A stretch of 63,382 nt of DNA, the filler included, from Sphacelaria rigidula (lineage: Eukaryota), in the NCBI GenBank assembly GCA_964200075.2. It is 5 parts of 5 records of this genome, joined end to end, with 100 filler letters (N's around TTAATTAATTAA, not from the genome) between each part and the next. Parts side by side here need not be neighbours in the genome. Positions count along the whole stretch, not along the records: positions 38,093 to 50,687 come from CAXNAA020003587.1; 4 more parts are not named here. One strand, written 5' to 3'. Within the stretch, counting starts at the first letter, position 1, and the number at the start of each line of letters is the position of its first letter. Of the stretch, positions 14,550 to 50,787 are shown piece by piece. The notes below the pieces were generated by a model. That model was not told where the DNA came from, did not search any database, and worked only from the letters and a program-made list of their open reading frames with translations. A program made the position numbers and the translations under genes.

Positions 14550-14810
14550 TTATTGGTCATTTTCTAGTCGACTAAGTTTCGTGTGTCATACTTTGTCATG
14601 CTTGGTACCTGATGGGCCATACTACATTGTGTGGTAGAATTGTGATGTCTGCTCTCATGTGTTACAACGTTTTGGACTAGCATCTCAACCAGCAAAGCAG
14701 AAGTTAGCCTGTTCGCCGATAATACAAGAGCATCTACGCCATCACGGACTGCGGTATCAGAGGGGTCTCTAGTCTTTTCACAATGTCAGCCTGACCTCCA
14801 TGCAAAATTT
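14550..14810 (+). repeat. Dispersed repeat, diverged copy at 24960-25225
   Basis: Shared gccgataatacaag...cgccatcacggactg...tctctagtctt...cacaatgt. Confidence 0.7.
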
Positions 14811-14984
14811 GCTGTTCTGGCGTCTGAGCGGCTCACGGGTATGCCGCCCTACGCTGCGAACGCGGGTCGACTCCGCACTTGGTAAAGTCGAACTCGACGG
14901 ATCGATACACTTGATCGTGTTTGGGCGCGACGGCCCAGGTACCCACGAACTGGCACCTTACATCCCCAGACGGTAAGTATCGAA

Positions 14985-15237
14985 GACACTTTCTACGATA
15001 GCCCCCTCCCCAAAACCAGCCTAAAAGTGTCACGAAAAAATCGGCCATACAGCGCCCAATGTTTGGATTCAGGCTGATGAAGCGCCTCATATTGGCGACA
15101 TTGGCGAGAACGAACCCAAACGTGGGAATTCCCAGCTGCTCGTTGTGCTCGGCTTTTCCCATCTCGATTCACGTGAAGATTTTGCCTCTCAAAACCATGC
15201 ACTTTTTTTGGAGGGGGGGGCTATCTTAGAAAGTGTC
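14985..15237. mobile_element. MITE with TIRs and 4-bp TSD (CGAA)
   Basis: GACACTTTCTACGATAGCCCCCTCC ... GGAGGGGGGGGCTATCTTAGAAAGTGTC, with CGAA on both sides. A second copy is at 61245-61485. Confidence 0.85.
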
Positions 15238-17013: not shown

Positions 17014-18831
17014 ATGTCTGGCGGGGGCGCTGAACGCCGTGAGGGACGAGGAAGGCGTCACGATAGACACCGCTCCGATTCCGGATTCTCCTCGGCATGC
17101 CGAAGCCGTTCCGATTCCCGGGACTGTCGCTCCCGCTCTCGCTCTTATCGCCGCCGCTCTGCGTCGCGCCGCCCCTCTACATCGCGGGACTCTCGTAGTT
17201 CTCGCTGTAGCGCCCTCCGCCCCTCGCGCTCTCGCTCTACATTCCCTCGTCGCACTGTGGCCCGCGTGACATACCGCTCCACGAGCCGTCCCACAACGAA
17301 CCGTGACAATCAGTCACACCGCGACAGACACGAGACTGAGGAAAGCATGAAGAAACGAGATGAAGGGGTCGAAGGGGCCGAAGCCAATCAATCGGCAAAG
17401 GTGAACGGGCGGGTACGGAGTCGCATTGCAAACACCTCTAAGATGCCAGTGTACACGGGCACTTCACCGGGTAAGCTAACAATAGCAAACAGTGCAGTAC
17501 TCCTCCAGGAAAAGATCTGGAGTACATTGCGTCATGTGGAACGTGCAGCGCTGAAGCTCCCCGAAGATGCACAGCAGGTTGGAGGAAGGTGGGTCACAAG
17601 AGTCAACAAGCACTCGCCCCGCCGCCGTGATCTACTTTTAGAGTTGCTTGCAGGCGGTGGCACCACTGCCACAGCGCTGCTGTCGGGCGTTCATGTTCGG
17701 GTGCACCGCATCTCAGGTGGTACCGAAGTCGTACGCCACGATCAGGTCACGACGACCGATTGGTTGCGTCTGCTGGTTTGTGAACAAGCCTTCAATTGTG
17801 ACTCCGCCGAAAATGCACGAGAAGCACACAAGGAGGTCACCTTGAAAAACGATGGATATTGGGAACATGCGGCTAAGCGAGTTTTGTTGGTTTATAAAGC
17901 CACCCTAGCGAGCGCAAGCCGTCCACATGCGACTGAGACTGACTTTTTCTGGCGTTTTATTACTAAGGAGTAGCTGAACGAATTGTACGAATGCGTCGTC
18001 CGAGCCGTCTTGCCTGATGAAGTTCGCAGGGATGGCATGCAATCACTTCTCCGCGAGGAGATGAGCGAAGCGGACACCAAGCTCGCCGACATGGCTGAGG
18101 AGCTTCAAACCCCGATGGGGGGACCTATGCGCCGCCGTGGTGAAGTAGCCAAAGATTTGTACGACGAGTTCATCAGAGTTCTTACCGCACGCCCCTCGAA
18201 GCATTACAGGAAGCCAGTTCAAAAGAAAGTAAGTCGCACATTAGGATCAGACCGCCTTTTTTCGCTAGATGCTATCAGGCAAATGTCGCCCTCGCAATTC
18301 TCCGCGCTCCGCGGTGAAAATGAAGGTTTGATACCCCGTGTTGCCACAGCCGCCGCGTCTTCTCCCAGGATCCTACCGCAGATAGAGTACGCGCAACCGC
18401 AGTCGGACGAATAAGTTCAGCAACTGACACCGGCCCTAGCTGCAGCGTTCGACAACACACCAGGGATAACCCCAGGACAGCACGGTGTTCCTTTCGTGGA
18501 ATAGAGACACCGCTCGGCAAGAGAAGTGCAGAGTCAAGGTTGGACAGCGGCCGCGAAAGAAGCGTCTTGGTCGTCTGCTGCATCCACTCCGCTACCAACT
18601 TCATCCTCGGCTGTAAGCACCCGCGATCAGCAAGCCGCTCCTTCCCCGGCAGGGAACCGAGAAGAGGTCATTGATCACCTCCGCAGGAACAAGATCTGCT
18701 TCGGCCACGCTTTCACGGGTACCTGCCGCCGCCGCAATGGCACTCCCTGTCCGTACACACACGGTAGCATCACGCCGTCTTACTACAGGAACGTCAAATG
18801 CCGCCGTAGAGCCGCCGTCCCGCAGAAGTGA
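17014..18831 (+). pseudogene. gag-like ORF (broken): RS-rich N-terminus and C-terminal CCCH zinc finger
   Basis: Collinear ORFs 16981-17973, 17983-18414 and 18526-18831 separated by stops; C-x8-C-x7-C-x3-H at 18697-18762; lies directly upstream of the protease. Confidence 0.7.
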
Positions 18832-19049
18832 CTCGCGGTCCTCACGGAATCCCAATACTTAGCCGCGATCGACATGGGACTGATCAACGAGGATAGCGAT
18901 GGTGGACCGGAGGAGGAAGAAGTAGAGCACGAACAGGCGCCCTCGGACAGCAACAGCGACAAATGAGGGGGCGGCCCAGGTAGTTTCAACTTGGGGAAGC
19001 TGCTAGAGGAGGAGTTGGCGACCATCACGCGTCGTCTCGGAAACCAATT

Positions 19050-22000
19050 GTGGGTGACGGGAGAGATCTGGCACCGGAGCCGGGCTCGGAGATCGTGGCC
19101 ACTCGAGGTACTGTTGGACACCGAGGCAGGTAGGGGCAATTACATATCTGGGTTTTTGTGGCGTTGCCTCATAAAAGCAGAAGTAAACAGACCAAGCTAG
19201 ACACGAACAACGCTGGTGCTATTCGCGCCGCCAACCCCTCGCAGAGTAAGGTATCCCCGATGGCTATAGTTGGATCAGTCGTGATACCCATATTGTTCGC
19301 TAAGGATGGTCGCGTTCGTAAAATAGCAGTCAGGGTGGTAGAAGATCTATCTTACGGCCTCATTTTGGGGGCCGAGTTTTTCAGGGCAACCGTAGCAGTC
19401 TCGAGTTCAAAGCAACAGGGGGATTTCGCCATACCCCCTCCGCACCATGGATTCCGCTTTGACCAACGATAGCCCCCGACATGCGGAACCGACTACACTC
19501 TCTGCCGTAGACCCGCTTAGTGAAGCGCGTCCGCTAGTCACACCCTCCTCCGCACCATATAAGTTCCCCAGTTACAGCGACGTTGCCTGGGAGGACGACG
19601 TCACGAGAAAGTGGAACGTGGGGCTGGCCGAGCGTTTCGTCTCCATCGACGGGTTTGTAAGCATGGCGGTGGAAACGGTGATCATGGGACCCCAACCGCA
19701 GGACAAGCAGCTAGCTCTGATGCTGCCCTTGGCTAAGTATGATCTGGACGGCGGAGCGTTGGTAGGGATAGTCAAAGGAGTATTGTGGGCGGTACAAGGG
19801 TTTCCAGTTTACTGTAAGTTAGTGAACAAAGATAAAGATAGGGCCGAAGTGAAGACCTCCGGGACAATCGCGCGCTTGATAGCCCTCGATGTGCGCAATC
19901 CTTCTCGCTTTCACTCACTTTTCGATGACACACCGTCAACAGTAGACAAACCTACCTTGCCCGCACCCCCGTCGTGCCCCAAGAGTGACCAACTGCCCTC
20001 AGAACCTAGCCAGGTCCGAGTATCGGATGCAAACATGGGACAGTTCGGGGGAACAGAGAAGGCGGAACTTGTCCGCCTATTGCGGAATTTCGTGAAAGCA
20101 GGATTGTTTCCCACGGATCCTAAGCGGGTGCCAGCCTGCATCAAGGGTAAGCTGCTAAAATTGCCATTGATTGACGAAGCTAGCACGCCCTTCGCAGCAA
20201 AACAACGTCGTTTCTCGCCTGAAGAGCGCCGAATGATCAGAGAGGAAATTCATAAGCTTCTTGACCGCGACGTTATCGGCCCCTCAACTTCCCCCTGGGC
20301 CGCGCAATGACTTTGTGTCAAAGTAAAAGATGGTACCTTGCGCTTGTGCATCGACTGCCGTGCTCTGAATAAGCTTTTAGTGTCTGGTAGCGGTGGGGTA
20401 GGCAACATGCAGTCTATATTTGATGGTCTCAAGGGCGAGAAATATTTCACGCAACTAGATCTAGCCTCAGGATTGCACCAAATTGAGACTGCCGAAAAAG
20501 CCCGCCACAAAACAGCGTTCAGAGATACAGATGACCGACTCTTCGAGTTCACCAAGGTAGGTTTCGGACTGATAGTACTCCCGGCGGCGTTCACTCGTAG
20601 AGTAAAATCAACGACAGGCAACCTGACTGGTGTACACAGCTAGCTATATGACATCCTCATAGCCAGCCCCTCGTGGGACGAGCACTTGGCTCTCCTTACC
20701 ATAACCTCGCAACGATTGTCGACTGCAGGGTTCTCGGTGAACTTTGCCAACTGCAGCTTCACAGCACCGTCCTAGGAGTTTCTTGGCATGTTGATCGATA
20801 GCACAGGCATACAACCGGCTCCATCCAAACTCACCGCAGTCGCTAAGTACCGCGTCCACGCACTGTTGAGGAACTCCGCTCGTTTCTCGGACTCACCGGG
20901 TATCTCAGACAGTTTGTAAAAAAGTACAGCATAATAGCCGCCCCATTGACCAACATTCTTCGCAAAAACTTATTTTCCTCACGTGGTGCACGAATGTTGG
21001 CCATTCCGTGGGATGATGATCAGGAAGCAGCGTTCCAGGCACTCAAGTCTTCCCTAACATCACCAACGATACTCGCTTTCCCCGACTTGAACAGCACGCT
21101 CGAATTGCAGACGGATGCCAGCAAAGTGAATGCGGGGGCCACTCTCTTACAGCTAGTGGGAGACGAGTCTCGCATCATCGCATTTGCGAGTCATCGGTTT
21201 TCACGTACACACTCGCGTCGAGCACCCACGGAGAGGAAATCTATGGCCGTAATATAGGGGGTCCAACACTTTGGACCATACCTAGCGGGCAGAACGTTTA
21301 GACTAGTCACCGATTGCTCCGCGCTGACGTGGTTGTTTCGTAGCCGTGATCTGTGTCCCAAGCTCCACAGGTGGGCGCTACGACTCATGGAGTACGAGAT
21401 GGAACTTCGATGGCGGAAAGGAACCCAACACGTGTTACCTGACGCTATGTCCCGTCTCCCACATCAGCAGGAGCCAGGAGATGACGCAGACGAGTCATTT
21501 CCCGACGATTTCACCTTCGGCACAACCTCGGAAGCTGCAAAGTCCCGCGGTCCACAACTGCACGAGGAATGGCTGTCAGAGTTGTCAGCCTATGGTTTGA
21601 AGAGAGAACGCACAGATGCAGTCGAGGCGACATACCTAGGCACCCCGCAAGCACTTCCTTTTGCTGACAGCGCGTCAATAGAAGACGAATCACACCGTCG
21701 TTCCCCCAGAATTCGCCGACCATCCGTGCGCTTGCAGTTCCCCGACGCTGCCCGTATACGTACCATTCCCGCAGATGTCCAGATGAATCTTCAAACACCG
21801 GTAGGTGTCACGCCTATTGAAGCTCCTACGAGGAAGCCTCCCCCCATTACCCCTGCCCCAATCAGCGAGCGGCGGAAAGTGGAAAAGGTGCTCACCGCTG
21901 AAGGGGACAGTCCTTCGACTCCGGTGAAAACCGCAGTGGATACGTCGTCATTCGAGAGGGCGATACAGATGTTGACAACCGCACCCGCGCTGAAACGCCA

Positions 22001-25297: not shown

Positions 25298-25397
25298 NNN
25301 NNNNNNNNNNNNNNNNNNNNNNNNNNNNNNNNNNNNNNNNNTTAATTAATTAANNNNNNNNNNNNNNNNNNNNNNNNNNNNNNNNNNNNNNNNNNNN
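25298..25397. other. Artificial contig linker
   Basis: Same 100-bp linker. Confidence 0.97.
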
Positions 25398-36542: not shown

Positions 36543-37992
36543 GGTTGCAGAAGAAGAGCTATATCTTGCCCACAAAACGTCAACAATAAATCGTCATTTT
36601 TCCAGCAATGGTTCCAAAAGGGCCAATGTATATGCGCTTGTGCGCGCATTTGGTGTATCCCGATGACGCTGTGGTCCAGCCTTCGTGCCCAAGAGACGAA
36701 TCCGTTACTATTGACACCTTCACGCTTCCTAGAACGAATGTCGTATGAACCGTGCATGTAGCCGAAATTCGCGGTGGCATTAGCACATGAGACAGCAAGT
36801 CCTTTACCGGAGCAGAGCTGACGGCGAGGGACGTCGGAGGAGTGCTCGTAAGCATACAGGTTTAAAAGCACGCATTGTTTCCAGATTGATGGGGCCACAC
36901 TCCTTGTTTGCGTACACGTTTTGCGACTTTTTTTCCCTTTTCTATTTTAGGCCATGAAACACGCACAGGTGACCTTCGAACTGAAAACATTTCCTTGAGA
37001 ATTCCTCGGAACTGTCAGAGCCAATCAACACGTACGATGCTCTCAGCCCTTCGAGCGTCAGCAGATGGTGACCGAAGTCGGGGTAGTCAGCTTCCAAGCG
37101 GAATCGAAGTCGCTTTGAAATAGGAATGCCCTGGGGCGGCCGAAGGATTGGGGAGCTAACACATACCCGACCTCTAACCTAGTCCTCACCTTGGACCCTT
37201 GCACTGCAAGGTAACCGCAGCATTTGTCGTTGTGATGTGGCGACTTGAATTCATGTCCGACTTTTAGTGTCACACATATCTCAAACAAGCGTAGAGGGAG
37301 GAGAGGGCTAACTTATCCTTTGATTGTGATGTATTTATTCAATGAATTCATGCGTCCCGGTGCGATTGCTCTTTGAAGCGGTTTTTCGATGCGTAAGCGC
37401 TTGTGCACCAGTAGAGTTTTTCTATATGTCGACCACGAGAGGGTTACGCAAACAACCATTTTGCATTTCCTGCACGGGCACAGCTATACAGCGCTCCAGA
37501 AGTCGTTCGGTGTCTCGCTGCCCATGACTTTCTTCCGTTGTCCTAGCACTCAAAGTGTTTCCGTTCGGCCGCCCCGCGAAAGGTTTCCCGTTGTCCTGTC
37601 TGTTCTCAGTGGAGACTGCACCATTCTATGATCAAAATCTTGAGGCCAGCGCGTACATGGTTAGAGTACGGAGACTAACCTCGAAATCTACTCCTCGAGC
37701 TCATTTTTCGAGATGTGCGTTCTAGGCTGCGTTTTTTTGAATGGCGTACCCGGAATCGTCTACACGTTTATCCTGCAATATTCGAGAAGGATTTCGTGAA
37801 ATGAAGGAAACCCGTGTTCCCCTGCTAAACTAAAGCAACAAGTATTCGCGAAATACTTTTCAATTGCTGTTTCCAGGATAAAAAATCTCAGCTTCCCCCC
37901 GCTCCCCCCCCCTCCTCCCTGTATGGAAGAAACGTAATGAGCTACGGAAGGAACGTAACTAGAGCCAGAAAGTTGGAGGGGTCTTTATTGTG

Positions 37993-38092
37993 NNNNNNNN
38001 NNNNNNNNNNNNNNNNNNNNNNNNNNNNNNNNNNNNTTAATTAATTAANNNNNNNNNNNNNNNNNNNNNNNNNNNNNNNNNNNNNNNNNNNN
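37993..38092. other. Artificial contig linker
   Basis: Same 100-bp linker. Confidence 0.97.
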
Positions 38093-39625
38093 CCACGGTC
38101 GCCCAGAATGAGCTTTTCGGGAAATTGGGGGGGGGTGAACACCGTTTTCCAGTCTGTAGGGCCCCTTTTCTGGGGGGTAAAAGTTGACTGCCGGTTCGAG
38201 TCGTCCATCTCGGAACAATTTCTCGCCGCGCCCACTGTCTTCAAGCTGACCCAATAAATAATAGCCCAGTATGGTCACCTTTCCTTGATTCGAGAATCCG
38301 GACAGTAGACGTGCCTTCCGTCTTTCATTCCTAGCTCCCATTCTCAACCCGAAACATGAGAGCGTTACGAGGCGCCCCATATCGGGAAATCCATGCACCA
38401 CCGCTACCCGCGGTCGAGAATGAGGGAAATGCCGAAGTCAATTCGGGAAAAACCTCATTCTTCTTATTCCTCCACTAGTATACGGAATTGAACGATCATT
38501 TAGATATCTCCGGGTTCGCCTCAACGTGAGCAGCCCAAAACCGAGGAGTTTTGGTGTGTCAGTTGTTTTTTTGGCGATCGGGGAGCAATTCTGCAGGCTA
38601 GAAAATGACTTTTGAGTCGCGGCGATCACTGGATAATGGAAATTGAGTCCCCCTGGCTTTTACAAGACCGGTTGTTGCCGACCTAGCACTATCGCAGTGA
38701 TACGGCCACCATGCTAAGAAGCGGGGCGTACGACGAACAGTTCTGTACTGCTACTGAATGACTGAAATGGACATGCAATAAGTTGACTGTGCGGTGATAC
38801 CAGCCGACACGAAAATGTTCTGATATTATAGACGTGCACAATGTATGAGTTGCAGATAATCACGTACTTTGCCCGCGTTTGGGCAGACAGCCGTGTTCAT
38901 ACAACGCGTATATCTACATATCGCATTTCATACTGCACAGCGACACAAGAGAGGGAGAAGTTGCAAAGGAGGATGTTATGGACGTGGTGTTGCGAAAAAA
39001 ATATTCAACATCGAGGTAGCGGCAGTCATGAAATGTAATTAACGTGATATTGATATTATTATGCCCACAAGGGCAGATCCATGCAAACTCCCGGGTGCCA
39101 GGCACAACGCCCATACATGGGGATAGATTTATGTAGTGAAATGGGAAATTAAACCAATCAGAGGCCCTCCGGCAAGAATACGGCGGAATTCTAAGCCAAT
39201 GAAATGCGACCTTTGTAGTGATTCATGTAGTGAACTATGCTACTGATTGGCTCGCAGACTCAAGTCACCTCAAGGTGTACGTACTACAGACAGTTCGTTG
39301 TGTCGCGCCGGGACGGTCAGAGCACAGAGAAAACGAAGCAGCAAGCACACAAGCACACAGCGAGTGGTACACTCCTGCGGCAAGGGTCCAGGTGATGCTC
39401 GTGTATCGATATATGCCTATCTTGGCAAGGGCGCTTACATCATGCCGTGGCGGCGAGCCCTGGCACACGCCAGCAACAGCGGTCTGCATGCTTCCGCGTG
39501 CAATCAGCACCCTGGCGATGCAGTATACCTGCGCTGTGCTGTGGGTTGCTCCTTTCATCGGAGCACGGGACCTGGCCCAGCCGGTCGAGCGATATTTACC
39601 GCTGTTTGTCTGTCTCTACCGAGCA

Positions 39626-42600
39626 ATGTTCGGTATCGCGCAAGCAGCGCCAACACCGGTCCCCTCCGTGACCGTGCCAAACCCCTACAACCCTCAAGGA
39701 GGAGTAGCCCTCCCAGCACAGCAAGTTGAACGTGCACGGCAACGGTCGGAGGCTACAGGTACAACGAGAGAGGTCGGCAGGAAGCGAGGGCGTCCCGTAG
39801 GGAGCAAGAACAAGCCGACGGCGTTAAAGCCAGGCAGAAATGCAAGGACCGTTTCGGCCGAAGCAGCGGTCAAGGACACCCGAGAAATTACCACCATGTT
39901 CAGGAGAGATACCGAGTCTCGCGCGTCGACAGGTAGCGCACCATCGCCGAGTGCTCGGAGATCATCCGCAGGTGCAAGCCTACCGTCGCCGAGTGACCCA
40001 AACACCAGTAGTGCCGGAGATCGTGATGGTGGGAGAAGTGATGAATGGATCCGCGAGGACTAACAACGCATCACAACCAAGCACGACTTCGTCAGACAGC
40101 AGCAGCAGCAGGAGCAGCGGCGGCGGCCACCGCACCTCGAACGTGTCACCTCAGCGCCAGTTCATCGAAGAGATCAAGATCAAGATAAAAGCATCCAGGA
40201 AGCACGAGAACGGGGGAGTCTCGCGGATATCGGAGTATCCCTATAATGGCGGATGGGCGTACCCTCCTGTTCCCTCACTACAGAAAGGCGGAGGTGAGTG
40301 ACTCTGTCGCGGACTGGTGAAAACTGTACAGTAGTAGAACTTGAAGGTGTCCTACTGTCTGTAGCACATGGCACATGGCGTAGATCATGCACAAGACGTA
40401 TCACTTGGTGACGGGGTGGTATACCCCGTAGGGATGATATTTTCCGTAACATACCGGACTCCTGACCGTTACAGGTCTACCATGCGTGGAGCCGTTCTAC
40501 CTGAAGAAGGTGTTCACGTGGGTGCCTGAGTACATCTGGGATGAGATCGAGTGTATTCCCTGTCCGCATTGTGGCGGGCGTGGGCAACCGGATGGGTGGA
40601 ATTATGAACCACGGAGAGTCTTTTTGGAGGACGATATCTGCTACATGATCGGATTCAGGTGGGCCTGCCTACACTGCTGTTCATATACTTTCGAGTACAA
40701 AGCGCGACAGATGTTGAGAAACTCTTGTATGGAGCTTGGCTCGGCGTCTTATTTCCCATTTCAGCAGAAATGCGTAAATACGAATTCGTATTGTTCAAAG
40801 AGGTGCAAAACGCCAAATGCTTAATTTTGAAATTCTTATTTTGCACAGGCAGAGGACAAGGGGGCATCCAAGGTCCCCCCTACTCTTATCCTCTGCCAAA
40901 AGAGACTACAGGTACAGTCCTGTGCCGTGCGCCAGTAGTAAGCAGTACGTGAATCTGTGTTGTTCCGAAAGACAAATCGTAACAAAATACAGTACCGTAC
41001 GCGTGTTTGCACAGGTTGTCATTATCCATAGGGTGTCCCAGTAGAGATTATCGTTGTTTGCCAGTTTAAGAGAGGAGGCAGCTTGTTTGGGGGCCTGATG
41101 TAGCCGTGGTGATTGTGAAGGCAATTTCTAATTTTTTTTATCTGTAGTGCATTCTTGTAGATTGTTCCCTGCCGACCCCCTGCCACTTTTAGATCTCTCA
41201 TTATTATTTTCCCCTTGAGTTCAGCACGAATGCTTACCCGTGCATTCTTAAATTTTAAAAAAACAAGCCTGAAATTCTTGACCACGAAATTTCCAACATG
41301 TGTCGCGCTCTGTGCATGAGTACATCCATTGCTGCCGAAGAAATATGTCACTGTTGGTCTCCGCATAAAAGTGCTGCATGTGAGGTGTTTTTTTTCGAAC
41401 CGCGGTCGGTATATTTTATCAAAGTTACTTGCAGTTAAGGATCGCTCGTGGTTGGTACTAAACTCGCGCTTTTGTAAGAGGTACTATTGCAAGCGGTGTG
41501 TCGATACCAACAAGACGAAGCAGAAAGATCAGCGTACAACCACCACATTCAATGCACGGGATGCCGACGTTTTGGCGAGGATGAACGACTTCGTGTCTAA
41601 AGAATTCCCATTCGTCCTGACCAAGAAAGCCGCCATATCTATGACCGTGGTAAACCGTTTAGCGGATGATCTCCTCGAGGGGAAAGGCTTTCGGCGACTT
41701 CAAAATCTCTTGAAAGGGCATACTCTGCAACGTACTTCAAACTCTTCCGTTCGTACGTGTCGCTAGCCAATCACCGTGTGTCTCAACTCAAGGGTTTGCA
41801 GGAGCAAGATTTTGACGTCGGCCCTATCGCAAGGTTTGGGTGTATCGGAGATCCTGTCGGGTTCAACAGCAGTCATCCATCTGCTCACTATCTGCGGGAC
41901 ATCTGGCACAAATGGTTCTACGAAATTCCCATTATACAGGTACGGAGAAGTGAAAGATTAGCAGATTTTGGTGTACGCGTAGTTTGGCTGTATGAATATG
42001 AGAGGAACAGCAGGCGGTGTGGGTAAGGACGAATCAACAGTGTCAGTGTTGATAGTGGCCATGACTTTTGTTTATTCCCTCGGATTGGTATCCCGTCAGG
42101 ATGATGGACAGGCGTGGACGCGTGAAGACTATCTGTAGCGTCGAGCTCAGTTAGTTGACGGTCGGCTGCTGGCAGGCGATGCTTCCTTCAAGTACGCCAA
42201 GGTAGTCCGATTGCCCACAGGACCAGATGGGACACGCGCGCGGCCCGTGTACGGGATATTCACCATCATGAACGAGTACGACCAGGTGGGGGAGAATGCC
42301 GTTCATGTCAACGCGACGTGGTTGCGATTTGCAATTTTTTGTTATCCACCAATTGATGCACAACTCCTCTTTTCTTGACCCGTTTTTTCGGTCGAGGCCT
42401 CACGCTTAACCCTCCCCCGCTGACTCCCTGGGCTGCTTTTCCCGTATTCTAGGTCGTATTTTCAAAGGCCATGAAGACTGGATCAGTCCACGATCTCAAG
42501 AATGATCTTAAAATGATGTTCATCAAGCGCTTCGTGGGTCATGGCTTCTAACTCCCAGTGATCCTTTTCACAGGTACGACACTTGTTTCGAAGAAAGCAA

Positions 42601-45600
42601 ATTGTCTTCGATAAGTAGGCTCCGTTGTTCATAGTGTAGATTATCCCACCGCTAATTCTTGTCTCTTCATCCGTTGTATATGTCTTCGCATCGCAGACGA
42701 ATGTTGCGAGGATCGGGGACTGCTCCTCGCGATGTTCCGAGAGATACTGGAGGAAACTGGTGTCCGTTTGTACGATGCTGCTGACGCCGATAGCGTAAAT
42801 GAAGAGACTACTGTGCCTGAACTCTCATTCCCCTCGCCCACGCGTGGCAAGTACGTTTGGGATCTGGCACCGGGAGCAAGCGCCATCTCGTTGGCGGTTT
42901 CTCAGCTTGCCAAAGGCTGCACTGTTCAAGGGAATGATTTGGGATTCGACTGCGAATGGGAGCCAGCGCTAGGCGGCGCGATACCAAATCCTGTCTCAAC
43001 TGTCCAGCTGTCGCTTCCTGATGGCACCGCCTACTGCTTTCATCTTCAAGGTGGGCAAAATCGAACCACCCCGTCGAACTTCCCGGCTGCCTTGCGACAA
43101 CTTCTGGAAGACCCTTCCATCGCAAAGGTATAGTTAGTGTGCCCATGTTCAAAGAACTTAGGTACAAATGAGGTGTGTGTGCGTTACTCATTCAGTCTGC
43201 CGCTTCCGCTCATCTGCAGGTTGGTGTAAATGTGAATTCTGATGCTTCTCTTTTGGAGCGAGACTATGGCGTCGACGTCGGCAACACCGTAGACGTGAGG
43301 ACTCACGCAAGAGAGTGTTGGGTGGAGACGCCGTCTCGTTCGCTGGCGGGCATGGTGGGTGCTTTGATCGGGAAAGAACTCTTTAAAGATCCGACCATCC
43401 GCTTCTCTCGATGGAGCAGCGGTTCCCTCACAAATGAGCAGGTGGGATTCAGGAAGCTCTGCGCGTTGCTTTTGCGCCTGCAACGATTTTCTTGTGGTAT
43501 CCTTCTCATCACTGCTTAGTTGTTTACTTGGTGCTTTTCAACTTGCTGTTTTCTTCGTGCTCTCATGATGAACCACGCTCTTCTTATGGCCACAGGTGCA
43601 GTATGCGTGCCTAGACGCATCCGCGTCCGTGCTCGTGTACCAGGAAATCGAGAGACTGAAAGACCCCATACGCACCCCCGCACCGACTACGCTGCCGGTT
43701 GGAACGAAGGTGCGAATGCCATGTTTGTATCAGGTGCGCCGAAGCTGTTTGCTTGCGCCGTTCAATCATGTAGGATGTACATCACGATCGCTCGCAAGAG
43801 ATACTGCTATCACGTCCGCAAATTGTGTGTTGTATCGTGCTGTTTTAATAGGTGCGTCTCTACAGCAACAACCATGCCAATTGTGTTGGTCTTGGGGAGG
43901 TGCAGGGTGACGAGAATGCTTCTCAAGCTCTGCGTCGGTGGCGCCCTAGATCCTGGCAACGGTTGAAAGGTGTTATCGTAGTCAACCTGACCGAGGCGCT
44001 CGTGCCTGCTGCGTTCATTCCGCACAAAAATGCACCTTCTGTCTCTGGTGTGAAACGAGTGACGTTGAACGACGTCTTCGACAGCGATAACGGCAGTCTT
44101 GTTCTGTGGGACGTTGCCTATGTTCGCCTCGCGAGGGATTTGACACCACGTCCTCCGACACCGGCACCTTCAGCAACTAAGAGTACAAGTGCCGCTTACG
44201 ATGACGACGCCGAGTTCTTCGCTGCTGATCCACCTTGCCATGTCGTGCGCTCGCCAGGTGAGATCGTGGCCCCTTCTGTGATGGCGTTGTGATGGGTTGT
44301 GAAACCCTCGCATTTTGGGCACTTGGCGCTTTGTTCACGACGATATCGTATTAACCAAACCAGAACTATTTGCATAGTTCTCCCTGTAGATGATGAAGAC
44401 TTGGGTGAGGACGGAGAGGACAGCGATGGGCATGATGACGGTGACCTCGGTCTTAGGCGTTGCGCTTGCCACACGAGAGCCGTGAACGACAGCAATGGTG
44501 ATATCAACATTGGCCAAGATGCCAATGCTGCGAAGGTAGAAAGCGTTTTTTATTGTCAATTTCACTGTTGTCCCTGAAGGTTGTTACCTGCAGACGCCAA
44601 TCATCGGTGTGCTGCCACTGCCGTTATTCAACGTTGGTTGTATTCATCCAACTTTCGGAGGAGAGGAGGCGCATGCTCAAGGTTCGCCTCGACATCTTTC
44701 ACGCGCTTCAGCGTCTGTCGCGCTTGCTGAAGAAGAGCCATGGTGCCTTCAGGCCCTTCATGGCTCGATTGAGAGATGCTTGCTTCATCGTAAATCTAGC
44801 CGACAACAAAGAGGCAAGAGTTGTTGACATTTCGTCTGCTATTGGTCGCGTAAGTGACTTTTGTGAGGATTTTAATATTATGCACAGATTAGTTCCGGCG
44901 GTGTGCTGAAGCTTGCATCGCAACCACTACGCTCGTTCCGATTTCGTTCCCAACCTAGATATCTGTTCGGTAATGACAGGTCGAGTTAGCTCTGAAAGCG
45001 CAAGGCATGAAACCGGAGGAGGTGGCAACTTACAAGAAAAAAAACTGGACCTTTTTTCTGCGGAACTGCCGGCGGTTGGTGCCAAACCGGGAACGTTTGT
45101 CGGCACGTTTCGATTCAGTGATCGACCAATTCCGGAACGTGGTCGACGCGAAATCCGGAGAAGTTCTCCTTCGACCAAAAGCAATGGACGCCATCAACCT
45201 CCTCCGCAAGCACATCGAAGCTGGCTGCCTCAGCGACCCTGACGGAGTGCCGCTGTACTACGCAACAGGCAAAAGCGCAGCCGGGATCACTACGCGTCGC
45301 TGTGTCAGAGGGACCAATAGCACTGAGGTTAGCTTTATATCCAGAACACTAATGGAGATGAAATCAACGAGCCAATCCATCGCCATCAAAAATCATATTT
45401 CTATGTTGGTCGTGTCACGTGTGTGACTTCTCTCCTCAGCTTGGCGATGGGAAAGATTTTTGTAGTATGGACCTGACATGCGTTTTGTTTTTTCGTTCCC
45501 TGTACATGCTTGTTCTCGAAAGGGTTATCATCGTTATCTCCGCAGGTTGCTACTACCATACTGCGCATCTCCCTCGCTGGCTCACTCCATGCTCCTCGAG

Positions 45601-46692
45601 TTCAACCATCGTTGGAATATCAAGATGGCTGTGAAGAACCGCGACCTGCGGAAGGATATTGGAGGATGTTTCGACCAGTTCGATATTGAGATAATTCAGC
45701 GCGAGACATCCACTTGGTACACGGACAGCCCCTTGCTTTCTGAGTGGGTCTCTGCACTTGATGCTGCAGACACGGGTGAGAGGAGTGGGCTTTCGAAGAG
45801 CATATGGGGTGGTGCGATGGGCAGCGTGCCAGCGGATTTCGTTGGTGACCAAGGGATGGTTCAGGAACCGGTGCCCCTCCCGAGGCTCACGCTCTCTGCA
45901 AAGCAATACGCACGCATGATGGACGTTGGAATGCCTGAAACGCCCGTACACAATGCAGTCGAGAGGAGAAAATTCGCCGCCGAGCTAGACGCGTACCTTT
46001 TTATTCCAGGCGATCGGATGGGGAGACTCCAGCAGCACCAGAGTATCAACTTCGATAAGTGGGCAGTAGAGTGGAATAATCACTGTGAATCGATCGAGTC
46101 CGGTCGGACGGAGTGGGAAGCCGTCTACCGGAAAACCTCCAAGCAACTACAGTCTCACTACGAGCAGTTTAAGCAACGCGCCAATGCGACGAACACAATA
46201 TTTACTATACGTCAAACGCATGCTGAATTGCGAGGTTCTTCACAGGAACCAGGAGGGGAGGGGTTGTTTGCTGGTCTAGTCGGTAGTGTAGTACCCCCTG
46301 CTGTTCCGCGGAGTCGTTCTGAGGCAGGCATTGGCGGTGGTGAGGGAGGGGGTGCTGCGGGCGGCGCGGGCCCGTCCGCTGGGAATGATGCAGTGATGAA
46401 CGAGGTTGGGAGATGCGGGGATGCAGAGATGAACTCCGAACCCACGCCCAAGAAGCCCAAGGGCCCATCCCGAGCCCCACAACAGTGCCGTACGTGTGGC
46501 CACTGTAAACAACGCGGCGGTTACAAGCGATTTCACCCGACACCGCGAGAGAAAGGGGCGATGCCGCAATGCAATGTACCGCTACAAGATCGCCGCCCTC
46601 AATCATGTAGAAACGGGAAAAGGAGATGCCGTGGGGGAGATCGGGCATGGTCTCGGTGTGACTGTGAAAAATGCAGAGCAGATGACGCATGA
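39626..46692 (+). pseudogene. Intron-containing DDE transposase (DUF6729-like N-terminus, DxxH class) with inserted DEDDy 3'-5' exonuclease; lightly pseudogenised
   Basis: Exons 39626-40293, 40475-40658, 41481-41939, 42100-42285, 42453-42573, 42697-43127, 43220-43441, 43596-43709, 43852-44257, 44390-44535, ~44651-44813, 44980-45327 and 45523-46692. Motifs: AT-hook RKRGRPVGSKNK; CPHC...YYCKRC; FPFVLTKKAAI; LAGDASFK; FTDECC; VRLDIFH; RGTNSTEGYH; C-terminal CRTCGH...CDCEKC. Lesions: frameshifts near 40050 and 41690, TAG at 42136, TAA at 42549. Confidence 0.82.
42940..43660 (+). CDS. WRN/RNase D-like DEDDy 3'-5' exonuclease domain (within the transposase)
   Basis: Exo I LGFDCEW, VQLS, LRQLLEDPSIAKVGVNVNSD (Exo II), SLAGMV, SRWS...LTNEQVQYACLDA (Exo III YxxxD), spread over three exons. 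Confidence 0.92.
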
Positions 46693-46820
46693 TTGTTGCG
46701 AGATATTCAGACTTGTTTTCAACTGGTAGAGTTGATCTCTGGTGCACTGTAAATAATGAACCAGCAATCGCTTTCAGGAGCGAAAGTGCTTGGACCGCTT
46801 CGTTTTCTTCCGATGTTTAA

Positions 46821-46917
46821 CCCTTCGACCGCGAGGCTAGGTCACCGGCTGAATCGTCATCAATTTCACTCAAAAAAGTATGCGTGATCCAGATAGACTA
46901 CCCTCGCGGTCGAATGG
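46821..46917. mobile_element. 97-bp piggyBac-like MITE
   Basis: TTAA on both sides; TIRs CCCTTCGACCGCGAGG and CCTCGCGGTCGAATGG (15/16). Confidence 0.8.
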
Positions 46918-47375
46918 TTAATGGGTTGACGTGTTATTGCCATGTGTTATGTGATTTTGCCGCGTCAGTTGTCTAGTTGCTCTGCTTACGCCGACTCCTT
47001 CGAAACCATGAGGTCATCCGGTGAATACTCATGTACCGAGCGCAAAAAATCGGGTGGAAATTGAGCCTAATCTCGAAGAGAAACATCAAAGTTTGTAAAA
47101 TTGCCGACTCGGATCGCACGCGCCGGTGGGAGACAAAAGTCCCTCATTGTATATTCAGGGTTAATAGGTTGACGTGTTATTGTCGTGTGTTGTGTGCTTT
47201 TGCCGCGCCAGTTATCTAGCTGCCCTGCTTACACCGACTTCTCCGAAACCGTAAGGTCATCCGGTGGATACTCATGTACCAAACGCAAGAAAGCGGGTGG
47301 AAATTGAGCCTAATCTCGAAGAGAAACATCATAGTTTGTGAAATTGCTGGCTCAGATCGCAGCACCAGTGGGAGA
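46918..47375 (+). repeat. Tandem duplication, 243-bp period, in the transposon 3' subterminal region
   Basis: ttaat.ggttgacgtgttattg starts at both 46918 and 47161. Confidence 0.85.
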
Positions 47376-48140
47376 AACAATTCCGTTGTTACATATGCAT
47401 GTATATTTTAATTATTTACCACCGTGAAAAAAAAATTCGCGCTTCGCGCGAATAATTTATTTCACTACAAATTCATCCCCATGTATGGGTGCTGTGCCGG
47501 GTGCCAGGCGTGCGTGCCCACTTGACGTTCACCCCGTGCAAGACTTCTAGAATCTGCGGCACATTTCCAGCACCGGTACCCTAAGCGCTTTGATCTTCAC
47601 TCCCTGCTTCTGCGGGCATGTTCTTCTCTGCTTGCTTTGACTTACCCCTACCACCGCACCACCTACCGTTTTGGTACACCTGGCGCAGGCCGACGTTACC
47701 GGCAAACACGTGCGGTGCAGTACAACAACTACTATCGCAATCATACAGCGATCAGGGGGTACCCCTCCCATAAAATCGGGTACCCCCCCTCCTTCAACCC
47801 CAAAATGAGGTTAGTGCGGCGAAAGAGGGGGTGGTGCATGGATTTCCCGACGTGGGGCCCCTCGGAGCGTTAGCAGTCAGACGGAAGCCACAAACGAGCT
47901 CCGAGAGTATTAGTAGTCATGATCCAATCCTCGATTATGAAACGCTAGGAGGCATGTAAGTACCGGTGGAGACATGGACTGATTCCTTGAGAAGACGTAC
48001 TCATCCTGAAAAGGGAGGGGGGGGGGGGGGGGGGGGGCCAAACAAGTGGGAAAAACCAAACGGGAAGAAATANNNNNNNNNNGAAGACGGAGAGGGGGTG
48101 TCGGGCGGGGAGGGGCAGGCGGGGGGGGGGGGGGGGGGGG

Positions 48141-48185
<45 letters not shown>

Positions 48186-48263
48186 CTGGTGGCCAAACAA
48201 GTGGGAAAATCCAAACGGGAAGATATATATATCATGATAAAGTACCAGAGGGGTGGCGGTTAC

Positions 48264-48356
48264 CTCGAGACGATCCAAAAAAAATCCCATGCACTCAGCT
48301 CTGACGGGCGGGGGCACTTCTTGCTCAAAGATGAATTGCTCCACCTCCAGCGCATC
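48264..48356 (-). CDS. Isolated probable exon (DALEVEQFIFEQEVPPPVRAECMGFFLDRLE), helical, product unknown
   Basis: cag acceptor, gtaacc donor, 31 open codons. Confidence 0.3.
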
Positions 48357-49431
48357 CTGACGAGATCAACAACAGCCATGATCCAGAAACAAAGACGTTT
48401 CGTCAAGTCATCGTCCATAATGAAATAGCACGCATTTGAACAGCTCAATCATCCGTTCTCCCATGTATCGAAAAATATCAAGTCGTTATTCATCATGCCG
48501 CCCTGTGCTGCATCCATTTAGTCTGTGCTCGTGGGAAAGCAACAGTCAATCGCCCACCAAGATCCTGCGACAGCATCATGTCAACATCTATTAATAGCAG
48601 AAAGAACATGTCTTGTTGGCGTTATGATTCTTCGGGAATCCCATGTGCTCCAGTTAAGGCCGAAAATCGACGGTTCCAACCCTGGCAGATGTGTCACTAC
48701 CATCATTAGCCCCGTCTCTTGAACCCGCGGTCACGGACTTCGACTAGTCTTTTCAGCACCGCCACTACTATATTTTACATGTGTGCTCAGGGTGTTCTTC
48801 CCAAGTGTTTAATACCCATCGTTCGAAACATGAGGAAGTGAAACAGCACAGCAGCGCAGCAGCACAGAGTGAAATTCCCGACAGTCGGCGCGGTCCGGGA
48901 ATGCCGATGTTCATGATGCACTCCTCGGCGGCACCACACCATTAGGCAGGTACCGAACGAGAGGACAGATGGGTTCATCCGTCAACACTACGTACGAACC
49001 CATGTCTGCCGCTGCCATCGCTACTTTGTACTCGGACACCGCAGACCTTACCGTCGTGAGTCTTTTGTTGCCCATGAATGACTGTTTTCGCAATCCACAG
49101 CTCGCCCGCCGGACGTGAGGCATGAGGTGCGGTACTATAGTGTATGTATAGTGTATGTATAGTGTTCACGGTTAGGACAAATCATCACGACTCACAATCA
49201 CCAAATTTACGATTTCTTCGGCGTGATTGCCCAGAAGGGAGAACAAAGTTGATCGCTGGTCCAAGGGGTATCCACGCAAATTTTGCGCCATATCACGTGT
49301 CTGGGCTACGTGTACCTGGGTTGCAACGCTGAAATCAAGCCTGACGATTGATTCGTCACGAGTCGACTCATGATACTAAAACCGAGTAGTTTTCAGACGA
49401 ATCATTATTTGTCCGACCCTTGATAGTGTTT

Positions 49432-49637
49432 CAAGGGTAGGTCGAGTAGAGTACACTCAATTGCGGAGTATTTTGAAAGTCGTACTTGAAGTACACAAAT
49501 TGGGGGGTAAGGTTTTAGGGATCGCTTCCCAGTTATTTTTGGGGTACGGCTTCTAACGCTCTACCCTAATTTGAGTACCTTACGTTCGTCTTTCAAATTA
49601 CCCCGCAATTGAGTATACTCTACTCGACCTGCCCTTG
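49432..49637. mobile_element. MITE with CAAGGG TIRs (hAT-like termini)
   Basis: CAAGGGTAGGTCGAGTAGAGTACACTCAATTGCGG and its near-exact reverse complement. Related elements at 49959-50196 and 29665-29960. Confidence 0.8.
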
Positions 49638-49958
49638 TATAGTGTTTGTATAGTGTATGCCCTCAATCGTACATACAGTTCGCACGCGTACGAGCAGCGG
49701 AGCATTGCGCAAAGTCTCGAGGCATCTACTGGACGCGCCTAGCACGCGCTTTGGCGACTTGGACAGCATAGGCCTCTCTGTGAAATCCCCCACTTCGGCT
49801 GTACAACTTGAGACGTGTGTTGTAAGGTGTTGAGCCTATATGTCCACGAAAGTGTCAGCAGATAGCACTAGAACGATTCACTACTAGCAATAACAAGAAG
49901 ACATGAACCCTTTCCTATTCGCCAGCACGGTGAAATACTGCTGCTAGCAATCAAGTCT

Positions 49959-50196
49959 CAAGGGTAGATCGGGTGGGGTAAATACCCGGGTAGTTTTTCG
50001 CCCGAACTTAGGGTCGCGATGGACCGATCTCCAACCCACCCAAATGCTGGGTAGGGTGAGGTACGATCCCGATACTCTACTCAGTATTTGGGCATTGTTG
50101 AGTACCATCTCAATAATCTACCCGAGGTGTGGGTAATTAGCGCACGATATCTTCAAATACCCAACTGCAATAAAGAACCTACCCGACCTGCCCCTT
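49959..50196. mobile_element. MITE of the same CAAGGG family
   Basis: caagggtagatcgggt ... acccgacctgccccttg. Confidence 0.7.
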
Positions 50197-50687
50197 GAAA
50201 TTTCTTCGTCTTGCCATCATCACTGCTCACCACCCCAATGCCCATTTAGCGCCCATCTACGCCTACAAGAACCATTCTCCGAAAACTCGCGGCGCGGTGA
50301 GTGGACAAAATCTGGGAAGAGGCTACAAGCGTTCAACTAGGAGGGTGGCGGAGGATTGGTAATGGGGGTGCTCCATCACGAGGAGACAGACATGTTCACG
50401 TACCGTCTCCTGCATCTCATCCAAGAATCCTGCAGCTAGCATCAACCGAAGCACCACGCCCGCCTCCCTGTAGATACACAGCAAAAAAAATGCATGTCGT
50501 CATCCATAGCACCGAAGAACATTGGAGGTTTTATGCAGACATTGATGAGTGAATGTCTACTGCATTTGCACGCCTTTTCATGCCTTGCGGAGGAGGTGGA
50601 GGGGCGGGGGGGGGGCGTACTCATTTGTTGCTTGCCTTACTCGTGTGATCATTGAAAACGCATCCATTTCGAGCAGGAAGGAGGGGC

Positions 50688-50787
50688 NNNNNNNNNNNNN
50701 NNNNNNNNNNNNNNNNNNNNNNNNNNNNNNNTTAATTAATTAANNNNNNNNNNNNNNNNNNNNNNNNNNNNNNNNNNNNNNNNNNNN
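50688..50787. other. Artificial contig linker
   Basis: Same 100-bp linker. Confidence 0.97.

Follow-up and report, generated by a model that had tools for sequence, protein, structure and literature searches.

The Dada superfamily was defined by Kojima & Jurka in 2013, and in the available text of that paper those Dada elements found in Ectocarpus siliculosus and in Laccaria bicolor are described as carrying a DEDDy exonuclease between the second Asp of the catalytic core and the DxxH motif, with processing of 3' ends as its proposed role (PMC3706591). One Dada family is recorded from Ectocarpus in Table 1 of PMC12477816, with 15 copies, one of which is intact.

We analysed a window of 63,382 nucleotides from the brown alga Sphacelaria rigidula, which consists of five pieces of about 12.6 kb each with N linkers between them; the genuine context of the element is therefore positions 38093-50687 only. 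We read this stretch, with a probability of about 0.85, as a decayed cut-and-paste DNA transposon of the Dada superfamily, belonging to those members that bear an exonuclease. The initial annotation had placed a WRN-like DEDDy exonuclease inside the DDE/DxxH transposase of a DNA transposon, after the second Asp and ahead of DxxH, and this is borne out by the same order in an intronless metagenome open reading frame (L001), an Amoebidium ORF and four relatives. The architecture is one already described, the same insertion having been given by Kojima & Jurka in 2013 (PMC3706591). What is new is modest: for the exonuclease lineage of Dada, ends can be defined, with duplications of 8 bp. Identity with Dada-1_ES is judged by the description in the paper and by an Ectocarpus protein. 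The encoded protein matches an NCBI protein of S. rigidula.

Twelve GT/GC-AG introns divide the gene into 13 exons (Table 1), and the read-through product of about 1548 aa runs from an AT-hook and a DUF6729-type zinc/helical DNA-binding module through D1, D2, the DEDDy exonuclease, a beta-barrel, an acidic linker, DxxH and E to a Cys/His tail. The AT-hook, Cys pairs, D1, D2, Exo I/II/III, DxxH, E and Cys/His tail had all been placed on the + strand, and each was located in that order. The candidate start, ATG 39626, is the fifth of six in-frame ATGs and was picked by eye. The exon 2 piece scores 18.6 bits against PF20499, under the cutoff of 27, and exon 2 aligns with the DUF6729 region of P0026, P0060 and P0075. 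Regarding the two splice junctions previously put forward, 42573/42697 is the best-scoring in-frame GT..AG join; 44535/44651 is noncanonical, its intron ending in AA, and an in-frame GT..AG alternative exists at 44544|44661. In run X1 a contig passes from 43127 straight to 43220, omitting the 92 nt between them (GT..AG). The deposited model P0001 omits the Exo III motif.

Table 1. Coordinates of the gene, the two sets of ends and the trailer repeats, as positions in the window.
Feature	Position	Strand	Remarks
Outer target-site duplication, left copy	38360..38367		GAGCGTTA; identical 8-mer at 47865-47872; abuts outer TIR
Outer TIR, left arm, 35 nt	38368..38402	+	32/35 complementary to 47830-47864
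Left arm of outer high-copy ~1.1-kb non-autonomous element	38368..39092		Word depth and contigs of X2-X4
Inner target-site duplication, left copy	39093..39100		GGGTGCCA; identical 8-mer at 47499-47506
Inner TIR, left arm, 30 nt	39101..39130	+	Probable true left end of transposase-bearing element; 26/30 complementary to 47469-47498
Exon 1	39626..40293	+	AT-hook 39776-39796; low-complexity Ser/acidic region; frameshift at about 40043
Exon 2	40475..40658	+	Start of DUF6729-like module; first Cys cluster 40552-40572; intron GT..AG
Exon 3	41481..41939	+	Second Cys pair 41488-41499; remainder of DUF6729-like module; frameshift after 41688
Exon 4	42100..42300	+	In-frame stop 42136-42138; D1 (first catalytic Asp) 42178-42180
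Exon 5	42453..42573	+	In-frame stop TAA 42549-42551; first base of D2 codon 42573
Exon 6	42697..43127	+	Remaining D2 codon bases 42697-98 (second catalytic Asp); Exo I 42948-42956 (D 42948-50, E 42954-56)
Exon 7	43220..43441	+	Exo II, D 43241-43243; PF01612 18.7 bits on ORF piece
Exon 8	43596..43709	+	Exo III 43602-43616 (Y 43602-04, D 43614-16)
Exon 9	43852..44257	+	Small beta-barrel module (putatively SH3-like), Pro-rich stretch; homologous L001 residues 374-460 all-beta in model
Exon 10	44378..44544	+	Acidic linker; least certain exon borders of the gene
Exon 11	44661..44813	+	DxxH, D 44691-93, H 44700-02
Exon 12	44980..45327	+	Helical region ending in catalytic Glu 45325-45327
Exon 13	45523..46692	+	Conserved helical C-terminal region; Cys/His tail 46486-46689; stop TGA 46690-46692
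Inverted-repeat unit, 105 bp	46817..46921		3' trailer; arms start and end with TTAA
Two direct repeat units	46916..47384		About 227-243 bp, 87% alike
Inner TIR, right arm	47469..47498	-	Inverted repeat with 39101-39130
Inner target-site duplication, right copy	47499..47506		GGGTGCCA
Right arm of outer element	47507..47864		Includes outer TIR at 47830-47864
Outer target-site duplication, right copy	47865..47872		GAGCGTTA

The lesions to which the initial annotation alluded number four in this copy, all inactivating: an extra base at about 40043, a missing base after 41688, and stops at 42136 and 42549. Three of the four sites are open in other copies, as represented in sequencing runs with the same organism label. 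A copy lacking the extra base at 40043 occurs in X3 (depth 20.8/44.4), a T is inserted after 41688 in X2 (114.7/234.1), X3 (43.9/99.5) and X4 (28.6/28.6), and position 42136 is C, not T, in X2 (151.6/151.6) and X3 (47.8/47.8). The first stop codon corresponds to Gln in P0092 of Ectocarpus fasciculatus and the second to Lys in three Ectocarpus proteins. On the stretch lie 1705, 1488 and 1428 contigs of X2, X3 and X4 respectively, about two thirds of which are only 95-99% alike. This copy is unable to make a full transposase and would be movable only by enzyme from another copy.

Four full-length relatives align end to end with the read-through protein, as seen with P0060 (an Amoebidium transcript ORF of 1538 aa), P0075 (1348 aa) and P0076 (1560 aa); Ectocarpus and chytrid proteins align in part, and the domain order is the same in the Amoebidium ORF, L001, the chytrid proteins and the Ectocarpus proteins, including P0002 of E. 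siliculosus. DUF6729 and PF01612 both exceed their Pfam cutoffs in P0060, P0057, P0075, P0076, P0026 and the single ORF of L001. Among relatives covering the respective columns, D1 is kept in 5/5, the D and H of DxxH in 6/6 and E in 4/5, the gene model of P0002 stopping just before it; the D2 column is conserved as well. Against the Dada reading, no Pfam transposase family was found on the core in any of eight proteins, even at E up to 10, and in two AlphaFold2 models the RNase H core is of low confidence (pLDDT <60 around D1 and D2, <50 after E).

D2 is separated from the helical insertion domain that bears DxxH by three extra parts, namely the exonuclease, the small beta-barrel and the acidic linker. 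All five DEDDy catalytic residues of the exonuclease are intact and line up with WRN, the D-x-E of exon 6 having been aligned to WRN Exo I by way of P0009, and PF01612 is present in all ten relatives scanned. A PDB profile search placed WRN exonuclease domains at the top (E 1.9e-44 and 8.6e-43), followed by EXD2 and Mut-7, and the AlphaFold2 model of a homologue superposes on the WRN exonuclease with TM 0.85-0.89 and rmsd 2.3-2.5 A. A WRN-like fold is confirmed for a homologue by the two AlphaFold2 models. The equivalent of the beta-barrel in the L001 model has a pLDDT of about 85-90.

The limits of the element differ from those first proposed. An inverted repeat does exist at the 40-bp TIRs reported earlier (38363-38402 / 47830-47869; 40 nt, 88%), but blastn and direct reading reduce the true TIR to 35 nt, the outermost 5 nt of each arm being part of a perfect 8-bp direct repeat, GAGCGTTA. 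The window contains exactly two occurrences of the 21-nt core of this outer repeat, where 100 shuffles give an expectation of 0.01. These TIRs had been taken as the gene-bearing element's own; most likely they belong to a high-copy non-autonomous element that hosts it, and an inner TIR with a perfect 8-bp duplication pair, absent from the initial annotation, was found. Since this 30-bp TIR pair is flanked by GGGTGCCA duplications, the gene-bearing 8.4-kb element is probably nested within the high-copy ~1.1-kb element, a reading drawn from one copy and contig summaries. The gene-bearing unit would be an element of 8,398 bp (39101-47498), presumably inserted into a ~1.1-kb copy that comprises 38368-47864 minus the insert. 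Contigs of X2-X4 pass from about 39090 directly into 47499 onward, without the 8.4-kb insert. Summed word depth in X2 is 22,000 over the left outer arm versus 200-500 in the interior; contigs have loose ends at 39103 and 47497-47499, and joints at 39048>47499 and 39051>47708. Within the 3' trailer, the 105-bp unit is probably another small nested repeat; X2 depth in the bin 46672-46993 is 16,525 versus 442 and 677 in the adjoining bins.

The same ends could be read as those of a single autonomous element of 9.5 kb bounded by the outer TIRs, with the ~1.1-kb form as its internal-deletion derivative, which would have arisen through recombination, or an aborted gap repair, between two 13-bp direct repeats (39091-39103 / 47497-47509), and the inner repeat as a subterminal transposase-binding repeat. 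Deletion derivatives that retain nothing but their ends are the usual source of non-autonomous elements, the joint 39051>47708 contains five filler letters in X2, X3 and X4 and resembles a repair footprint, X2 depth falls stepwise (22,000, 7,300, 1,500, 260) and not at one point, and the outer duplication contains GCGTTA, which resembles the GCG-initial duplications described for Dada families in the available text of PMC3706591. We nevertheless consider this unlikely: a 26/30 inverted repeat with a perfect 8-bp direct repeat outside both arms is the signature of an insertion and not of a deletion end point, and a contig links 47498 to 39101, with six letters between, exactly at the inner TIR tips, as expected of element ends. 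Nor does the likeness of outer to inner TIRs rise above chance (score 19-20, compared with 14.5 on average in controls, sd 3.3; a score this high was reached by 12% of 2000 random stretches).

That the exonuclease comes from a host gene, captured or adjacent, which gene models and the splicing of the initial annotation wrongly fused to transposase exons, we regard as very improbable. P0001 and the Ectocarpus models cover the gene only in part and disagree over which exons to include, and no sequencing run recorded as RNA contains the stretch; against this, L001 holds every module from DUF6729 through D1, D2, the exonuclease and DxxH to E in one uninterrupted frame of 1407 aa, the Amoebidium ORFs of 1533-1538 aa derive from assembled transcripts, the intron just ahead of the exonuclease exon interrupts the D2 codon itself, and the same fusion is described from two further taxa (PMC3706591, in its available text). 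The shared order in L001, the Amoebidium ORF and the four relatives is therefore no artefact of gene models or a captured separate gene. Equally hard to credit is an immobile, single-copy host gene domesticated from a transposase as a WRN-like repair factor, as might be supposed from an Ectocarpus relative annotated 'similar to Werner syndrome protein'; the copy bears four inactivating lesions and TIRs with duplications, many diverged copies occur in the sequencing runs, and the distribution is patchy (brown algae, fungi, an ichthyosporean) and includes multiple near-identical cluster members. For the exonuclease-bearing Dada transposon that we favour, the N-terminal module would bind the element ends, the DDE site would cut and join, and the built-in exonuclease might trim 3' ends made in excision or insertion, the role suggested by Kojima & Jurka.

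Among known systems, WRN (PDB 2fbt, 2e6l), EXD2 and Mut-7/Nibbler have in common with the present exonuclease PF01612, the DEDDy residues and, on the homologue's model, the fold; their domains are free-standing or helicase-fused, whereas here the domain lies within a transposase. KolobokD is likewise a C/DxxH-class DDE transposon that supplies an exonuclease of its own, and there too the proposed task is to degrade the 3' ends of transposition intermediates, but that enzyme is DEDDh/DnaQ (TREX/ERI1-like) and not DEDDy, while KolobokE has a lambda-exonuclease-like nuclease (Kojima & Bao 2022, PMC9587614). Both belong to another superfamily with TTAA duplications, and the available text of that paper terms the exonuclease an accessory protein and describes no insertion inside the DDE core. 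IS256 and ISCth4 similarly have an RNase H-like DDE domain split by a helical insertion domain with C/DxxH, 8-bp duplications, and TIR-TIR junctions whose spacer measures about 6 bp (Kosek et al. 2020, PMC7780238, as far as its available text goes); their transposase is prokaryotic, about 47 kDa, exonuclease-free and copy-out/paste-in, and the PDB profile search and Pfam detected no sequence similarity to it. The six-letter junction from 47498 to 39101 may correspond to the IS256 spacer, as a lead only.

Closer are the Dada families themselves, as described in the available text of PMC3706591. Dada-U6, Dada-U1, Dada-tL, Dada-tA and the Perkinsus Dada-t share D, D, DxxH, E and zinc fingers. These small-RNA-gene-specific families are without the exonuclease and use fixed sites in U6, U1 and tRNA genes, whereas no tRNA or Rfam family, snRNAs included, was found at the outer or inner insertion site here; Dada-U6 and Dada-U1 have 9-bp or 7-bp subterminal repeats only, in contrast to TIRs of 30-35 bp, and Dada duplications are 6-7 bp as against 8 bp at both sites, differences that tell against the Dada reading. 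Dada-1_ES and Dada-1_LB / Dada-2_LB agree with our element in the DDE triad with DxxH, the N-terminal Cys4, the C-terminal Cys/His fingers and the introns, and equally in the position of the DEDDy exonuclease and its proposed role. The host of Dada-1_ES is also a brown alga, although of another species, the matched stretches of P0002 being 51-85% identical to the window. Where the available text gives no definable ends for Dada-1_ES, Dada-1_LB or Dada-2_LB, the present copy has 30-bp TIRs and an 8-bp duplication.

The gene spans 39626-46692 and comprises 13 exons separated by 12 introns, all with canonical borders (11 GT..AG and one GC..AG). Exon borders were set by scoring in-frame GT/GC..AG joins against related proteins, and the candidate start, the ATG at 39626, was picked by eye as the fifth of six in-frame ATG codons. 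Translation across the breaks, with X placed at each, yields a read-through protein of 1548 residues, and the open reading frame (ORF) pieces of the + strand hold every module named in the initial annotation, in the same order. Two splice junctions had been singled out there: 42573|42697 is indeed the top-scoring join, its intron interrupting the D2 codon (second catalytic Asp), but 44535/44651 had to be abandoned because its intron would finish in AA, and a canonical in-frame alternative is available at 44544|44661.

Four lesions interrupt the coding sequence (see the table). At three of the four sites the open state is found in contigs of public sequencing runs with the same organism label (X1-X4): the extra base of the first lesion is absent in X3 contigs, a T is inserted at the second in X2, X3 and X4 contigs, and the first stop codon reads C instead of T in X2 and X3 contigs. 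The fourth site is absent among the run variants shown. P0001, the deposited protein of this locus from the brown alga Sphacelaria rigidula (NCBI, 995 aa), is 99% identical to residues 1-260 of the ORF of the last exon, over 94% of the query; its model opens only after the last of the four lesions and leaves out Exo III. The window copy is a gene-inactive element that has retained its ends.

Features of the locus, in window positions and in residues of the read-through protein
Feature	Window positions	Residues	Remark
Outer direct repeat	38360-38367, 47865-47872		GAGCGTTA, perfect 8 bp
Outer terminal inverted repeat (TIR)	38368-38402, 47830-47864		32/35 matching; end reading and self-blastn
Inner direct repeat	39093-39100, 47499-47506		GGGTGCCA, perfect 8 bp
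Inner TIR	39101-39130, 47469-47498		30 nt, 26/30 matching
Lesion 1	~40043		one extra base
Lesion 2	after 41688		one base missing
Lesion 3	42136-42138		stop; Gln in an Ectocarpus fasciculatus protein
Lesion 4	42549-42551		stop TAA; Lys in three Ectocarpus proteins
AT-hook		51-57
Cys clusters	40552-40572, 41488-41499	250-256, 288-291	in DUF6729-like region
D1		D465
D2		D546
Exo I		D630, E632
Exo II		D697
Exo III		Y766, D770
Beta-rich module		~800-890
Acidic linker		~916-960
DxxH		D1003, H1006
E		E1159
Cys/His tail	46486-46572	from C1481; C1481, C1484, H1497, C1509

Alignment columns of the four presumptive catalytic positions (D465, D546, D1003/H1006 and E1159) are conserved wherever a relative spans them. 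The protein also carries the two zinc fingers typical of Dada, a superfamily of DDE transposons that has its DxxH motif in common with hAT, Kolobok, P, MuDR and IS256 (Kojima & Jurka 2013, PMC3706591). An N-terminal CCCC finger is formed by the two Cys pairs, the first of which is missing in some relatives, and a C-terminal CCHC finger by the Cys/His tail, where the residues are spaced more widely than PMC3706591 reports for Dada-U6_DR.

The description of the inserted domain as a WRN-like exonuclease is borne out by Pfam, by its DEDDy columns, by a PDB profile and by a homologue model, the fold being that of the metagenome locus L001 and not of the window copy. In P0001 the family PF01612 scores 38 bits vs a cutoff of 23.6; a single exon piece alone gives 18.7 bits, under the cutoff. 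Exo I (D-x-E), Exo II (D) and Exo III (Y-x3-D) are all intact, as was first proposed, and their five DEDDy residues share columns with WRN residues when aligned via the protein P0009. When the PDB was searched with a 37-sequence profile, 39 sequences matched at E up to 1, headed by WRN exonuclease domains (1.9e-44 and 8.6e-43) and then EXD2 and Mut-7; none of the 39 is a transposase or integrase by name. The exonuclease of the L001 AlphaFold2 model has pLDDT 80-95, and Foldseek aligns it with WRN structures (2fbv, 2fbx, 2fbt, 2e6l) at TM 0.85-0.89 and rmsd 2.3-2.5 A. At a second metagenome locus (L006:3349-5979) the Exo III Asp is replaced, giving Tyr-x3-Phe, and PF01612 went undetected in the ORF piece of L006 (877 aa) that spans Exo II-III. 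Going by the sequence of this locus, some lineages may carry an inactive exonuclease.

L001 carries an uninterrupted, intronless ORF of 1407 aa with DUF6729, D1, D2, exonuclease, DxxH and E, and because a single ORF holds the whole order, the fusion there requires no assumed splicing. The read-through protein itself aligns end to end with P0060, from Amoebidium, and with two other relatives, P0075 and P0076, keeping the D, D, DxxH and E columns. A HMMER search of the protein library with the exon spanning D2 and Exo I returned 53 proteins with E no higher than 0.001 (20 at 1e-10, nine at 1e-30), most of them short fragments; among ten of these scanned with Pfam, PF01612 was present in every one and DUF6729 in one. 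Named sources of relatives include Ectocarpus species, the chytrid Quaeritorhiza haematococci and Amoebidium parasiticum (transcript-derived ORFs), and Amoebidium ORFs of 1533 and 1538 aa exceed the Pfam cutoffs for both DUF6729 and PF01612. Scanning metagenome contigs (alignment A2) gave 11 related loci from 189 pattern matches. Word-indexed protein searches returned nothing beyond the relatives already found when made with alignment A1, and three proteins only when made with P0060. As leads only, two protein atlas clusters of 134 and 58 members contain PF01612 in 87-91% and DUF6729 in 70-86% of cases, and fungal phyla are the commonest recorded taxa among the related atlas rows.

Two AlphaFold2 models were obtained for L001 (790 and 1200 aa, from 37 and 44 alignment rows); neither has a confident RNase H-like core, pLDDT being <60 around D1/D2 and <50 after E, and Foldseek on the first model retrieved exonucleases only. 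Directly after the exonuclease the model has an all-beta module (residues 374-460, pLDDT ~85-90), followed by a disordered linker and then by a confident helical region that begins with DxxH. DxxH-class transposases have a helical insertion domain, described for ISCth4 (PMC7780238), and from this module order the exonuclease, beta module and linker would lie at its N-terminal edge. Assignment to the Mutator/IS256/hAT clan, made in the initial annotation, stands as far as the common C/DxxH signature goes, but finds no counterpart among family models: no Pfam transposase family (MULE, Transposase_mut, hAT dimerisation and others) was detected at E up to 10 in any of eight proteins. No Pfam family covers the Dada core, for which weak HHpred similarity only, to integrases and Mu transposase, has been reported (PMC3706591).

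Two pairs of inverted repeats enclose the gene. The outer pair had been described as 40-bp TIRs, and an inverted repeat of 40 nt at 88% does exist; the proper TIR, however, is 35 nt, the arms having been drawn overlong because their outermost bases belong to the 8-bp direct repeat GAGCGTTA, the target-site duplication. The 21-nt core of the outer repeat occurs exactly twice in the window vs 0.01 times expected (100 shuffles). The inner pair contains the whole gene and is flanked by its own perfect 8-bp repeat, and its likeness to the outer TIR is not above chance. We favour, with a probability of about 70 to 80%, the reading that a Dada element of 8,398 bp lies nested within one copy of a non-autonomous, high-copy element of ~1.1 kb. 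This reading draws on the inner TIR with its duplication, together with run depths and contig joints that fit an insertion. Summed word depth in X2 is 7,000-22,000 across the outer arms vs 200-500 in the interior, these depths being sums over contigs and not copy numbers. In X2, X3 and X4, contigs starting at 47497-47499 have in front of them the letters found before 39091, and a contig ending at 39103 continues with the letters after 47509, and so represents the outer element without the 8.4-kb insert and with one copy of the 8-mer.

The same depths and joints would also follow from a single 9.5-kb element whose 1.1-kb form is a deletion derivative between 13-bp direct repeats. What such a deletion fails to explain is the signature of TIR plus duplication at the inner ends and the tip-to-tip junction in an X2/X3 DNA contig (one sample), in which six letters separate 47498 from 39101 and the join falls exactly on the inner tips. 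The nested arrangement is therefore preferred. That junction could be likened to the circle/junction products of the IS256 family, whose copy-out/paste-in hallmark is an 8-bp duplication with a 6-bp TIR-TIR spacer, in circles or tandem dimers (PMC7780238); it could also be a tandem pair, and its duller reading is two adjacent insertions.

Other features of the ends were observed. At 38409, ten X2 and seven X3 contigs leave this copy's sequence after the outer left TIR, which they have in common with it, and continue as poly-C, so other genomic repeats use the same terminal 40 bases. A degenerate direct copy (17/22) of the outer TIR core lies within the left arm of the outer element, at 39064-39085, just before the inner insertion site. 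Among the metagenome relatives, no terminal inverted repeat was found in L001, and L006 has a 28-nt inverted pair without flanking duplication.

The window consists of five pieces of ~12.6 kb each, joined by linkers of the form N44-TTAATTAATTAA-N44, with TTAATTAATTAA a 12-mer, at 12600-12699, 25298-25397, 37993-38092 and 50688-50787. The element's piece is 38093-50687 (12,595 bp), so that its genuine context amounts to 275 bp on the left and 2.8 kb on the right. An apparent inverted repeat between poly-C at 37895-37930 and poly-G at 48001-48180 pairs across a linker, between unrelated pieces, and is meaningless. In the right flank, 48001-48180 is a long G-rich tract of low complexity, interrupted by a 10-N gap (48073-48082), and no long ORF was found within 48200-50687. 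In the 3' trailer, 46817-46921 is a 105-bp inverted-repeat unit with TTAA at the start and end of its arms, where the depth bin is ~25-35x that of neighbouring bins; this unit is probably a small repeat in its own right, of high copy number, that lies nested in the element. The trailer also has direct repeat units at 46916-47142 and 47159-47384 (227 bp aligned, 87% alike, period 243 bp).

In the Rfam search, no family attained its gathering score anywhere in the window and the flanks gave chance-level rows only; the tRNA search with ARAGORN came back empty for both the window and the rebuilt empty site. A 'tRNA-???' call, made only at a relaxed ARAGORN threshold and ~150 bp off the insertion point, was set aside as doubtful. 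The insertion site of the inner element is another repeat. A fixed insertion site in an snRNA or tRNA gene, a Dada trait, was not seen at this locus; the trait is true of Dada families with defined ends and is not stated for Dada-1_ES or Dada-1_LB. Regarding expression, none of the runs recorded as RNA holds the stretch. One contig of X1, whose RNA nature is only a guess, passes directly from 43127 to 43220, skipping a 92-nt GT..AG intron within the exonuclease, and its other interior pieces are exonic; the joint fits a spliced transcript of some copy, covering part of the gene only. Junction 42573|42697 is covered by no contig joint in the runs.

By family membership, the AT-hook and the zinc/helical module at the N terminus would bind the element ends, the DDE site would cut and join at an 8-bp staggered target, and the DEDDy domain would remove nucleotides from 3' ends made in excision or insertion; processing of cleaved 3' ends has been suggested as the exonuclease's role (PMC3706591). 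Were the inner-tip junction an intermediate of the IS256 kind, the element would be a eukaryotic DxxH transposon with a circle/junction pathway, which the built-in 3'-5' exonuclease could serve. The exonuclease-bearing Dada lineage, with its 30-bp TIRs, 8-bp duplications and insertions untied to RNA genes, might differ in mechanism from the small-RNA-gene-specific families, a reading that we regard as very improbable.

The architecture had been presented as not mechanistically characterised in a transposon system. An exonuclease inside a DDE transposase, between the second D and DxxH, was published in 2013 for Dada elements of Laccaria and of Ectocarpus, a relative within the same algal class (PMC3706591), and hence is not countable as a discovery. 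The term 'DUF6729' appears in none of the papers covered by the full-text literature search. The Ectocarpus siliculosus protein P0002, annotated as 'similar to Werner syndrome protein', is 51-85% identical to the window over the matched stretches, and its layout is that described for Dada-1_ES (PMC3706591), the two being likened by description and not by Repbase sequence. A 2025 survey of Ectocarpus repeats lists in its Table 1 one Dada family of 15 copies, one of them intact (PMC12477816). Introns are reported in all Dada elements except those of Perkinsus (PMC3706591). The initial observation was largely right and its interpretation right; the locus adds a member to a known kind.

The small-RNA-gene-specific Dada families insert at fixed sites in U6, U1 and tRNA genes, make 6-7-bp duplications and are without TIRs (PMC3706591), whereas both elements in the window, seen in one copy each, have 8-bp duplications; apparent 8-bp repeats were also met by the same authors, who argued for 6 bp (PMC3706591). 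Because the passages of PMC3706591 drawn on here give no ends for the exonuclease-bearing families, the 8-bp duplications and TIRs extend the Dada description without contradicting it. To that lineage the locus contributes a full exon map with intact DEDDy residues, candidate ends (30-bp TIRs and an 8-bp duplication) and evidence that it is not confined to small-RNA genes. Dada is one of five C/DxxH superfamilies, among which certain Kolobok lineages also have exonucleases of their own (Kojima & Bao 2022, PMC9587614), and such nuclease partners in other C/DxxH transposons (KolobokD, KolobokE) point to a recurring putative need for end processing.
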